Origin: Gammaproteobacteria bacterium
GTDB taxonomy: Bacteria > Pseudomonadota > Gammaproteobacteria > Thiohalobacterales > Thiohalobacteraceae
Reading direction: 5' to 3'
NCBI GenBank assembly: GCA_002699185.1
Contig: PABG01000083.1
Location: forward strand, 696-64,695
DNA length: 64,000 bases
Shown: positions 30,137 to 41,091 of the stretch, piece after piece
Layout: the number at the start of each line of letters is the position of its first letter
Position numbering within the stretch: position 1 is the stretch's first letter
The notes under the pieces: model-generated
What the model was told of the DNA's origin: nothing
What the model saw: the letters and a program-made list of their open reading frames with translations, nothing else
Database searches by the model: none
Made by a program: the position numbers and the translations under genes

Positions 30137-30553
30137 TTACGGCGGCGGCACAATCCCCTGCCGACGCAGCCAGTCCACATCCAGTTCCCAGCGGATACGC
30201 TGAATCGAAGCATCTGCCCTGACCAGTTCGCCGGCACGGGCCTGATGACCGGCCAGCGTCTGCTGGGCCTGCTGAAAGGCGGGATCATCCGATGCGACAC
30301 CCGCGAGGCCGGGGTCGATGGCATGGATCATGTCCCGGACCGGCATTTCGGCCGAACGCGGCGTACTCATGACCGCGGTATGGTCCTCGATGCGCAGGAC
30401 GCGGAAGGGATAGGGGTAGGCGGCCAGGATCGGATCAGCGGCCAGGCGCTCATTCAGTTCCCGCACGGCAGCCGGTTGATACAGGAACAGGACCAGCAGG
30501 GCCGCCACCGCCAGACCGAGCACCAGCGCATAGATCTTCGTGCCGCGGTCCAC
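30137..30553 (-). CDS. Membrane-anchored hypothetical protein
   Basis: GTG start, N-terminal TM, YPYPFRV and STPRS segments; last gene of the minus-strand run. Confidence 0.7.
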   Translation of the reverse strand: MDRGTKIYALVLGLAVAALLVLFLYQPAAVRELNERLAADPILAAYPYPFRVLRIEDHTAVMSTPRSAEMPVRDMIHAIDPGLAGVASDDPAFQQAQQTLAGHQARAGELVRADASIQRIRWELDVDWLRRQGIVPPP

Positions 30554-30625
30554 GATCCTAGCGGCCGCCCGGCAGTGGGAACTGGACCCGCATGATGCGG
30601 GTCCCGGCATGCAGGCTGTCTGCGA

Positions 30626-31207
30626 TCACCTGTCCAGGCCGTACATGACGTCGCGCTCCAGCTTCCAGCCCCAGGGCAGGCCGGAATTCTTCCAGCCATT
30701 CACCACCCGGGCACCCTGATGCTGCCCCGTCTTCGCCTTGCCGCCCTCGAAGCCATCGACCATGCTGTAGACATTGGCATAGCCGAGTTCGTACAGGGCG
30801 TCGGCGGCCGGGGCGCTGCGCGTTGAGCCGGAACGGCACATGAAGATCAGGTGCGCGTCCTTGTCGATGTCGAGCGCATCCAGCCGGGCCGTGACCTCGG
30901 CGGCGAAATCCGGGTTCACGTAGCCGCCATAGCTCTGCTTCTCCTCGTTCCAGCGCGTGCTGTCCATGATCTTCCATGGCACGTGCACATCGACCATCCG
31001 GGTATAACCGGTGAAGTGGATCTCGATGGGATCACGCACATCGATCAGCACCACCTGACGGTCGCCCGGATTGCGGAGCATCTCGTAGGCTTCAGCGGCA
31101 TCCACATACAGCCCGGCCCGGGTGCGCATGCTCTCCTTCTCCGGCGCCTCGGCGGCGAAGACAGTGGCGGACACGGCAATCAGCAATCCTGCAATCAGTC
31201 GTTTCAT
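30626..31207 (-). CDS. Periplasmic rhodanese-family sulfurtransferase
   Basis: Sec signal, IDVRDP, MCRSGSTRS, DGFEG, GWKNSGLPW; AGGAGA RBS. Confidence 0.88.
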   Translation of the reverse strand: MKRLIAGLLIAVSATVFAAEAPEKESMRTRAGLYVDAAEAYEMLRNPGDRQVVLIDVRDPIEIHFTGYTRMVDVHVPWKIMDSTRWNEEKQSYGGYVNPDFAAEVTARLDALDIDKDAHLIFMCRSGSTRSAPAADALYELGYANVYSMVDGFEGGKAKTGQHQGARVVNGWKNSGLPWGWKLERDVMYGLDR

Positions 31208-31268
31208 GTGATATCTCCTGTTTGTGTTCATGAAGTTCGTTCGGCCACCCGGCCGCCCGGGACGGTAT

Positions 31269-31886
31269 TCAGGGCTTCTTCCCGGATGCCTCCGCATCCT
31301 CGATCTCTTCGTAGCCGGTGATCATCGCCTTGACGTAGGCATAGAAAGGCCTGCCGGTGAGCGCGAGATAGACATGGGCGATGAAAAACACCAGCATGGC
31401 GATGGCAGCCGCGGTATGCACCATGGCGACCGTACCCAGACTCAGGCCTTCGAGACCCAATGCCGGCCAGTCGGTGTAGAACAGATACAGCAGCCCTGAG
31501 ATCCAGATCAGCGGCGAAATCGCCAGCTTGAATCCCAGATAGGCGAGCCGCTGCAGCGGGTTGTGCTTGGCGCTGAGTGACTTCTTGAATGGCTTTTCCT
31601 CGTCACGGAACATGCCGATGGAGTAGTACCGGACCATGGCCATCAGCTTCTCCGTGGTCGGGATGTAGTGGCGCCACTCACCGGTGGTCAGATGCCAGAA
31701 GATGGCGAAGGCCCACAGCACGATCAGCGACCAGGCCAGGATGATGTGCAGGTTCACCGCCCGCTCGAAGCCGAACAGACTATAGACAGCGTGGATCTCG
31801 AACCCGGTGATCATCAGAGCCACGATCAGCGCCGCCTGGGTCCAGTGCCAGAAGCGTTCGAACCGCTTGTAGATCATCACCTTCAT
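31269..31886 (-). CDS. Di-heme cytochrome b (PhsC/FdnI-like membrane subunit)
   Basis: ERFWHWTQA, NLHII, HNPLQRLAY, VHT..AHVY; ATGA overlap with the octaheme gene. Confidence 0.88.
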   Translation of the reverse strand: MKVMIYKRFERFWHWTQAALIVALMITGFEIHAVYSLFGFERAVNLHIILAWSLIVLWAFAIFWHLTTGEWRHYIPTTEKLMAMVRYYSIGMFRDEEKPFKKSLSAKHNPLQRLAYLGFKLAISPLIWISGLLYLFYTDWPALGLEGLSLGTVAMVHTAAAIAMLVFFIAHVYLALTGRPFYAYVKAMITGYEEIEDAEASGKKP

Positions 31887-39597: not shown

Positions 39598-39613
39598 TGC
39601 AAGCGATGTGCCA
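39598..39613 (-). promoter_or_regulatory. Sigma-54 (-24/-12) promoter
   Basis: Minus strand TGGCAC-ATCGC-TTGCA is a consensus match, 46 nt upstream of the pdo-like start; AT-rich IHF-like tract at 39620-39665. Confidence 0.9.
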
Positions 39614-39690
39614 TCGCATCTGAATCTACTTATTTATATGATTTTTATATATTTTCAATTATAACCCCAGGGTCGTAAGTCACCCTGGAG

Positions 39691-39736
39691 TGTCATTCAT
39701 GGCAGTTCTGTTATATGCTTACTGCCATTATTGTCA
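39691..39736. promoter_or_regulatory. Putative upstream activator sequence for the sigma-54 activator
   Basis: TGTCA-N4-TGGCA and TGCCA-N4-TGTCA arranged as a 16-bp inverted repeat (13/16) upstream of the sigma-54 promoter. Confidence 0.65.
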
Positions 39737-39753
39737 TCACCGGGGTATTTCCC

Positions 39754-41091
39754 ATGAGCTCCAGGAAGACACATGCGCTCGGCGATCGTCTGGCCCCCGA
39801 GATCACCGGTGTCCTGAACTGCATCGGGGAACCGGCCATCGCCCTGGACACGGACTACCACATCCTGGCCGCCAACGAGGCCTACCGGCGGACCTACGGT
39901 GACGGCAGGCCCCTGCATGGGCGCTTGTGCTATGAGGTTTCGCATCATTACAGCGTCCCCAGCGACCAGGCCGGCGAGAGCTGCCCCCTGGCCAACTGCC
40001 TCGGAACCGGCCAGGCCCAGCGTGTGCTGCATCTGCATCACACGCCCCGGGGCGAGGAACACGTCGATGTCATGACCCGGCCGGTACGCGATGCGCAGGG
40101 CCGGATCAACTACGTCATCGAGGTCATGCGGGAGATCAGGGCGGCAAGCAGTCAGGCCCGTCCGGACGGCATGGTCGGCCGCGCGCCGGCCTTCAATCGT
40201 ATGCTGGAACTGGTGCAGCGGGTCGCCCCCGCCGACACGGCGGTCCTGCTGCAGGGCGAGTCCGGCACCGGCAAGGAGCTGGTGGCCAAGGCAATACACG
40301 AGGCCAGTCCGCGCGCGGACAGACCCTTCGTGGTGGTGGAGTGCTCGGGGCTGACCGAATCCCTGTTCGAGAGCGAGCTGTTCGGGCATGAACGCGGCGC
40401 CTTCACCGGCGCCCATGCCCGCAGGATCGGTCTGGTCGAGTCGGCCGCGGGCGGGACCCTGTTTCTCGATGAGGTGGGCGATATCCCGCTCAGCCTGCAG
40501 GTCAAACTGCTGCGGCTGCTGGAGACCGGCACCTATCGCCGGGTGGGCGGCACCGAACCGAAGCAGGCCGATTTCCGCCTGATCACCGCCACCCACCGCG
40601 ATCTCGAGGCGATGGTGAAGACCGGCGAATTCCGCCGCGACCTGTACTACCGCATCGGCGTGTTCCCCATTCCCCTGCCCGCGCTGCGCGACCGGCGTGA
40701 CGACCTGCAGCTGTTGATCGAGTCGCTGCTCACCCGTATCGCTCCGGACCGACAGCTGCAGCTGTCGGACGCCGCGATGGAATGCCTGGCGACCTATGCC
40801 TTCCCCGGCAATATCCGGGAACTGCGCAATCTCCTGGAGCGGGCCGCACTGCTGACGGACGACAGCCTCATTACGCCGGAGCACTTGCCGGAGTACTGCT
40901 GTGAACGGTCTCCAGGCGAGGTGCCGGCCATACCTGCTGATGAGACCATCCTGCCGCTGGAGGTGGTCGAGCAACGCTATCTGGCGCAGGTCACGGCACG
41001 CTTCCAGGGGGATCGGGATACGCTGGCGCGGAAACTCGGCATCAGCAAACGTACTCTGTTCCGCAAACTGCAGCAGTTGCAGGCTTCATGA
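39754..41091 (+). CDS. Sigma-54-dependent activator, FisR-like (PAS-AAA+-Fis HTH)
   Basis: [42 protein letters not shown]-terminal HTH; PAS segment [20 protein letters not shown]. Confidence 0.92.

Follow-up and report, generated by a model that had tools for sequence, protein, structure and literature searches.

We analysed a stretch of 64,000 nucleotides (nt), hereafter the window, from a sulfur-oxidising gammaproteobacterium of the family Thiohalobacteraceae (contig PABG01000083.1 of assembly GCA_002699185.1). On its minus strand lies a predicted operon that brings together cytochrome bd, an octaheme cytochrome c of the Otr family and sulfur-handling proteins, with an activator gene divergent from it (Table 1). 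The sequence-only reading of this DNA had described thirteen co-oriented genes with tight junctions, and all thirteen were found in place on the minus strand, with junctions ranging between an overlap of 14 nt and a gap of 72 nt. Searches against Pfam and NCBIfam returned matches to the metallo-beta-lactamase (MBL) fold, Tll0287/DUF3365, CydP, CydA, CydB, CydX, YbgE and SLAC1/TehA, as well as to the TIGR04315 octaheme family, a b561-type cytochrome and rhodanese. Neither the 68-amino-acid (aa) protein nor the 138-aa protein matched any family in these two collections. CydA, CydB and CydX pass the Pfam cut-offs, and cydB, cydX and cydP pass those of NCBIfam, where cydA scores 949.6 against a cut-off of 968 (E. 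coli equivalog). The subunits and their order are the same as in the E. coli-type bd-I operon, cydABX-ybgE with cydP. Unlike that operon, the one in the window is preceded by a sigma-54 box and the gene of a FisR-family activator, and sulfur-handling genes flank it. In the available text of PMC5702731, E. coli cytochrome bd is described as insensitive to sulfide.

The unit is conserved as a whole. In a congener with a complete genome (G002), all 14 genes (the 13 and the activator) occur in the same order at 81-97% identity. The ratio of nonsynonymous to synonymous substitution rates (dN/dS) against this congener was 0.08-0.36 for 12 of the 13 operon genes (cydX left out) and 0.12 for the activator. 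A second congener (G001) matches the window up to position 30034 and again from 41177, with about 100 bases in between on a single contig, and searches for cydA, otr and the activator in G001 found none of them. Since G001 lacks the block in one piece, the block was gained or lost whole; its edges enclose everything that the sequence-only reading had assigned to the unit, last gene included. As for its being an island, G001 presents an empty site next to the 3' end of a tRNA, no integrase was found among the 14 genes, and no repeat of the tRNA end was found at the left edge. Contigs from two runs of one metagenome study of an oil production facility covered all 30 bins with few differences, and the cluster members at 90% identity were Thiohalobacter thiocyanaticus and Thiohalobacter sp. 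COW1.

Table 1. Positions of the operon genes, the regulatory elements and the adjoining tRNA within the window
Feature	Position	Strand	Remark
138-aa N-terminally anchored protein, small alpha/beta domain	30137..30553	-	inside the block gained or lost whole
hairpin after rhodanese stop	30586..30606	-	stem core kept in congener, no U-run
rhodanese, hydrophobic N-terminus, likely periplasmic	30626..31207	-	CRSGSTRS loop
four-helix cytochrome b (PhsC/FdnI/HyaC-like)	31269..31886	-	overlaps otr stop
Otr-family octaheme cytochrome c	31883..33565	-	8 CxxCH; C-terminal membrane helix, residues 528-555
SLAC1/TehA-family anion channel	33565..34521	-	substrate presumably sulfite or another sulfur oxyanion
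ybgE	34553..34843	-	family profile
cydX	34863..34979	-	family profile
cydB	34992..36134	-	family profile
cydA, cytochrome bd subunit I	36147..37751	-	sole cydA-like gene found in assembly
cydP	37762..37965	-	family profile
68-aa acidic protein, likely signal peptide	37991..38197	-	otherwise seen only in congener locus (81%)
Tll0287/DUF3365 monoheme cytochrome c	38228..38821	-	CxxCH; likely exported
persulfide-dioxygenase-fold protein	38808..39551	-	His56/His112/His129 replacing His/His/Asp; clade with three His
sigma-54 -24/-12 box TGGCAC-N5-TTGCA, TGGCACATCGCTTGCA	39598..39613	-	start predicted near 39587
AT-rich tract between enhancer and promoter	39620..39665		AT-rich in congener too
predicted enhancer site B, TGYCA-N4-TGRCA, exact	39691..39704		about -110; 32 bp from site A
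predicted enhancer site A, TGYCA-N4-TGRCA, 1 mismatch	39723..39736		about -142 from predicted start
FisR-family sigma-54 activator	39754..41091	+	PAS_4, sigma54 AAA+ (GAFTGA), HTH_8
tRNA-Lys	41177..41252	-	3' end is right edge of the block absent from G001

A FisR-family activator and a paired palindrome

The divergent gene had been read as a FisR-like PAS-AAA+ activator. Its domains bear this out, and its three motif positions, C59, S70 and C77, are spaced like the cysteines in the orthologue of Cupriavidus metallidurans, whose gene is itself divergent from pdo-sqr, with tauE after it. For comparison we kept the best 80 loci out of 598 candidates; the FisR-family set consists of 39 loci other than the window (L013-L050 and L054). 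Of the 43 relatives aligned, all but three, which lack the PAS module, carry C-x10-C-x6-C (40 sequences); invariant histidines accompany the cysteines in this module. According to the accessible part of PMC8614764, the signal in FisR is a tetrasulfide between C53 and C64; C53, C64 and C71 of the C. metallidurans orthologue align to C59, S70 and C77 in the window. The genome has rpoN. A modelled complex of the activator (residues 10-385) with the persulfide-dioxygenase-like (pdo-like) protein scored 0.00, which speaks neither for nor against an interaction.

The consensus sigma-54 promoter claimed in front of the first gene is present, and the box is identical in the congener, where its flanks differ. 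Although it is the sole match in the window at no more than one mismatch, shuffled sequences are expected to give 2.68 matches, and by itself the box could be a chance match. Similar boxes precede the first gene in related loci. The region 29500-41400 contained sigma-70 promoters and terminators at chance level (3 against 1.9 and 5 against 5.2, respectively). An RNA run yielded only two 31-nt pieces over the window and weighs neither way.

Between promoter and activator lies the AT-rich tract, which we infer to be a DNA-bending site. The sequence-only reading had also proposed a dyad enhancer here without specifying the dyad. The more conspicuous candidate, CCAGGGT..ACCCTGG (39667-39688), was rejected, as it is absent from the congener; what stands of the proposal is a pair of TGYCA-N4-TGRCA palindromes, both kept in the congener. 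This motif was derived by comparing core-operon promoters, and we counted it, at up to one mismatch, in the 380 nt upstream in the 39 other FisR-family loci, with the expectation taken from Markov resampling. At least one palindrome lies upstream in 22 of the 39 (2.4 expected) and at least two in 9 (0.12 expected), one of these pairs being far apart; because the loci are kin, these counts overstate independence. Among other sigma-54 activators, 2 of 41 are preceded by a palindrome. In the whole 2.9-Mb assembly the pair occurs once, at this operon. The spacing in nine listed regions is 31-33 bp in seven and 22 bp in one, the remaining region being without a site. The paired palindrome is thus likely an enhancer and a candidate binding site of the FisR family.

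The FisR-cyd core and the addition of otr

How much of this operon is special to the genus? Across the 39 FisR-family loci, sqr-like genes occur in 19 and cydA in 17, with both in 8, whereas a canonical type II pdo occurs in 11, DUF3365 in 4 and otr in one. These counts point to direct control of cytochrome bd by FisR as a common arrangement. A core in which FisR faces pdo-like, DUF3365, cydPABX-ybgE and tehA genes is present in two genomes of the same family (G005 and G012), and in a third (G010) it is present with no DUF3365 match. The core of G012 continues into the same rhodanese gene, so that tehA and rhd are adjacent there. In G204, from another family, FisR faces pdo-like, cyd, ybgE, sqr, DUF3365 and sqr genes. 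No otr was found in the core operons of these four genomes. Since the FisR-cyd core is common, the operon is less singular than at first reading: of the combination for which the sequence-only reading knew of no description, the full set was seen only in this genus, but the cyd half is a regular FisR partner. The literature within our reach, with subscription papers largely outside it, yielded no FisR-linked cydAB, no otr under FisR, neither this operon nor the clade of three-histidine proteins described below.

The resemblance to the known FisR regulons of Cupriavidus pinatubonensis JMP134 (as cited in PMC8614764, PMC9774590 and PMC12754779) and Acinetobacter baumannii (PMC7315123), as far as the available portions of these papers describe them, extends to the divergent PAS-AAA+-HTH activator, the sigma-54 promoter, the spacing of the three-cysteine motif (with Ser at the middle position in this assembly), a pdo-fold gene in first position and an anion exporter. 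Unlike the FisR-pdo-sqr-tauE regulon, the unit in the window has neither sqr nor tauE, and its pdo-like protein is without the Asp ligand; in place of sqr and tauE it has cydPABX-ybgE, DUF3365, TehA, Otr-cytochrome b and a likely periplasmic rhodanese. We rank the operon as a variant of the FisR regulon, because there is no sqr among the 13 genes and the PDO is non-canonical. In A. baumannii, by the accessible text of PMC7315123, sulfide induces cydAB (A1S_1433-1434) apart from the FisR operon (A1S_1708-1711).

The DUF3365 cytochrome aligns with Tll0287 of Thermosynechococcus (PDB 5B82, E 2e-10), with which it shares the CxxCH motif and the AVC cysteine. The heme of Tll0287 has His/Cys ligation, and the protein has a link to sulfide. 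Unlike the Thermosynechococcus protein, the one in the window is proteobacterial, and its family adjoins FisR, cyd or sqr genes in four of the FisR-family loci. The 68-aa protein gave no match in an Atlas search at 0.9.

One reading of these neighbourhoods is that oxygen or general thiol oxidation, in place of sulfane sulfur, is the signal for the activator and that the operon is a respiration unit for low oxygen or oxidative stress. Group II globins in 7 of the 39 loci, a peroxiredoxin after the core in G012, the lack of sqr in 9 of the 17 cydA-bearing loci and the invariant histidines of the PAS module would all suit it. Nevertheless, the characterised FisR members respond to sulfide as far as the available literature goes, and the commonest neighbours in the family are sqr, pdo, tauE and sulP, so we hold this reading to be very unlikely.

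At the TIGR04315 cut-off, otr was found in 29 of 401 class-level genomes. We compared 49 other otr loci, some of them duplicates or on short contigs, and found a cytochrome b gene in 45, DUF302 in 11 and tehA in 3. In three loci otr approaches the FisR or cyd genes in different ways: an intact FisR is divergent from otr-cytb-tehA (L125), otr-cytb lies about 2 kb past a FisR-cyd locus (L041), and cydX, cydC/D-like ABC genes and otr form one run to the contig end (L131). A quick tree places the Otrs of the window, of L125 with L041, and of L131 on different branches; the window Otr clusters with sequences from another family and a metagenome instead of those from its own family. The Otr tree and the PDO tree below carry only Shimodaira-Hasegawa-like approximate likelihood ratio (SH-aLRT) support, and we draw from them neither donors nor an order of events. 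It seems that otr became linked to the FisR/cyd toolkit on more than one occasion, and otr-cytochrome b is, judged from these loci, a genus-level add-on to the FisR-cyd core. Operons with FisR, cyd and otr genes in three genomes encode small NifB/NifX-like proteins (PF02579-type) that have a motif in common (L125:4453-4923, L131:6673-7047 and L195:2017-2397), and one Otr-family protein of about 1000 aa carries 15 CxxCH motifs (L096:7858-10878, genome G009).

It could be argued that otr-cytb and the last gene are passengers, co-transcribed by position and without a role in the sulfide response. At least 4 other genomes have the core with no otr in it, the window Otr groups outside its own family, and homologues of the last gene stand in varied contexts in 11 other genomes. 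Yet dN/dS values of 0.11 and 0.13 indicate purifying selection on otr and cytb; both genes overlap their neighbours and lie between tehA and rhd, two core genes that are neighbours in G012, and they recur in other lineages beside FisR, tehA, cydX, sqr, fcc or rhodanese genes. We therefore consider passengers quite unlikely.

For the last gene, the predicted structure has a mean predicted local distance difference test (pLDDT) score of 90.6, and the best hit of a structural search with it (Z 6.2, root-mean-square deviation 2.7, 69 aligned) is below a meaningful level. The name that some databases give it, glutamate-ammonia-ligase adenylyltransferase, was rejected for lack of any Pfam or NCBIfam support. 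Homologues are present in 12 of the 401 class-level genomes, this one counted; 8 of the 11 others have otr elsewhere, and in two genomes the homologue lies beside a group II globin-like gene (loci L144-L154).

Beyond the operon, the absence of sqr claimed earlier holds for the 13 genes and not for the genome, which has three sqr-like genes, labels that rest on similarity and on an NCBIfam match below cut-off. The genome also has dsrA, an fccB-like gene, and aa3- and cbb3-like oxidases. On contig C20 (4147-6874), one sqr-like gene is preceded by a box of sigma-54 type and by a single near-match to the palindrome. After it comes a second FisR-like gene, whose product has the three cysteines complete; cross-talk of this product with the operon is possible. 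Contig C71 (36817-47664) carries a cytochrome cd1 nitrite reductase cluster and then a NorB-like gene. Only two molybdopterin-family matches were found in the assembly, and two in the complete genome of G002, which suggests the lack of a nitrate reductase.

Around the block, a YeeE-type sulfur transporter lies just past tRNA-Lys (41309-42535), and a soxB-like gene, read by eye, and a SoxH-related hydrolase lie 4-7 kb to the left (23441-26687); the congener without the block shares the YeeE and SoxH-like genes. The left flank (27023-29667) has an OxyR-like regulator divergent from phosphoglycerate-mutase-like and Dps/ferritin-like genes, followed by DUF2061. Between 29692 and 30062, a near-consensus sigma-70 promoter in an AT-rich palindrome, which we take to resemble a Fur box, precedes a 91-aa open reading frame without a Pfam match, present in both congeners (86% and 71%).

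The three-histidine protein and the Otr-cytochrome b pair

The first gene had been called pdo-like. This is right for the fold: the best PDB matches are PDO-type MBL proteins (E 3e-41 to 7e-23), and the protein shares with type I PDO/ETHE1 (4CHL, 4YSB and 9RHQ) the MBL fold, both His ligands and the C-terminal NxxC. As a canonical dioxygenase, however, it fails. Unlike type I PDO/ETHE1, it has, in the alignment with PDO structures, His129 in place of the Asp ligand and HESH in place of HADH, with GRTD and GHDY altered together. The iron site of PDO is formed by two His and one Asp (PMC9774590, from its available text). Among the 120 listed of 594 homologues, position 129 is His in 72, Asp in 46 and Glu in 2. 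The window protein and 71 of the His proteins, 72 rows in all, form one clade (SH-aLRT 99, quick tree) with the linked changes HESH, TPGHS and YPGR. Decay of the gene was rejected because dN/dS is 0.18 and the change is common to the clade. Differently altered PDO versions occur in other FisR-cyd loci (L160, L195-L197 and L200; L017, L020, L021, L025 and L041), canonical PDOs also stand beside FisR and cyd (e.g. L031 and L024), and a canonical PDO is encoded elsewhere in this genome (contig C92). The three-histidine protein likely binds persulfide or has an altered chemistry.

The octaheme cytochrome scores 599.8 bits against the TIGR04315 cut-off of 375 and resembles OTR of Shewanella oneidensis (PDB 1SP3) over residues 46-512 (E 7e-105), with eight hemes. 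It keeps the equivalents of K56, N61, C64, D150 and K153 of 1SP3, whose roles in the active site and as Lys ligand we take to be as in Mowat et al. 2004. Unlike the Shewanella enzyme, the protein in the window carries a membrane helix at its C-terminus, is paired with a cytochrome b of its own and is encoded within a FisR-cyd operon. Because the active-site residues are kept, the C-terminal helix is present and the gene overlaps that of cytochrome b, a link of Otr-cytochrome b to quinone is likely. The Shewanella enzyme is described as soluble (PMC12949373, in the part available).

Predicted function of the operon

We consider it probable that this is a FisR-type sigma-54 operon through which polysulfide or persulfide induces cytochrome bd, to which the genus has added an Otr-cytochrome b pair predicted to exchange electrons with quinone; a sulfide-triggered switch to cytochrome bd is likely. 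In such a scheme, SQR and Fcc would make polysulfide, which would cross-link C59 and C70 of the activator as in Cupriavidus FisR. The activator would then bind the two palindromes and open the promoter near 39587. CydPABX-YbgE would oxidise quinol with O2 and so sustain respiration while sulfide blocks the heme-copper oxidases, TehA would export a sulfur oxyanion, and the rhodanese would carry sulfane sulfur in the periplasm. The C-terminal helix presumably anchors Otr at the membrane, and cytochrome b would connect it to quinone, so that electrons could pass between sulfur compounds of the periplasm and the quinone pool.

Several observations weigh against this scheme. At the position equivalent to FisR Cys64 the activator has Ser70 (codon 39961-39963), in this assembly only, and this serine, if real, would remove the sensing cross-link. 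A protein otherwise identical in its other 444 residues has Cys70 on 4 contigs, and the congener also has Cys70. Since the otherwise identical protein has Cys, Ser70 is, going by these copies, an assembly error or a private allele; the three-cysteine motif is present at the species level and not in this assembly. In addition, Acinetobacter FisR functions without these cysteines according to the available literature, and therefore the motif is not the sole route to sulfide sensing. A strong hairpin stands between the rhodanese and the last gene. Among the comparison genomes, the cores of G005, G012 and G010 contain neither otr nor sqr, so there is no obligatory slot for one or the other, and the otr of G005 sits elsewhere, beside DUF302. 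Finally, cydA is in none of the 49 other otr loci and otr in the single FisR-family locus counted above, so that the full combination is seen only in this genus.

The direction of electron flow through Otr has to be considered separately. Our tentative preference is that Otr oxidises sulfide or rhodanese-bound sulfane sulfur and feeds the bd oxidase, since several other FisR-cyd operons have sqr downstream of cydX and since the oxidation of sulfide or sulfane sulfur is energetically downhill to ubiquinone. The cores without otr and sqr tell against it, as do the activities reported for Otr, which are reductive. Under the same regulation, Otr-cytochrome b might instead be a quinol-driven sink that reduces tetrathionate, nitrite, nitric oxide (NO) or hydroxylamine while sulfide blocks oxidases and denitrification enzymes, which we regard as possible though somewhat unlikely. 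The cd1 cluster and NorB-like pieces of the genome indicate that such nitrogen compounds occur in the cell, and with only two molybdopterin-family matches a Ttr or Psr is unlikely, a gap that Otr could fill. On the other hand, the neighbours are sulfur-handling genes (rhodanese, TehA, pdo-like), nitrite is already served by NirS, and ubiquinol, to judge by redox potentials, could not drive the reduction of sulfite or polysulfide. Published work speaks on both sides: in the available text of PMC12949373, the activities described for Otr in vitro are chiefly the reduction of nitrite and hydroxylamine, and sulfide induces an NO-detoxifying gene pair in Acinetobacter, as far as the accessible literature tells. 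In Shewanella ANA-3, again by the available text of PMC12949373, Otr was not required for tetrathionate respiration, its deletion giving no tetrathionate phenotype, and sulfite reduction was suggested. Tetrathionate reduction as the task of Otr is therefore doubtful. A further, unlikely extension of the oxidative direction is that Otr-cytochrome b may be a heme-based sulfide/persulfide:quinone oxidoreductase fed by the periplasmic rhodanese, which with cytochrome bd would make up an entire SQR-independent, sulfide-proof respiratory chain within a single FisR operon, and that the three-histidine protein may be a new thiol/persulfide enzyme or sensor.

For the families concerned, the three-histidine clade of the PDO fold is conserved yet labelled sulfur dioxygenase in databases. 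Otr is widely used as a marker of tetrathionate respiration, though its natural function was never established, even in Shewanella, to go by the accessible part of PMC12949373. The candidate FisR-family binding site may be usable for regulon prediction. For Otr itself, the operon offers a concrete test of its role in sulfide stress, being defined, probably sulfide-inducible and found in a genus with named complete genomes.

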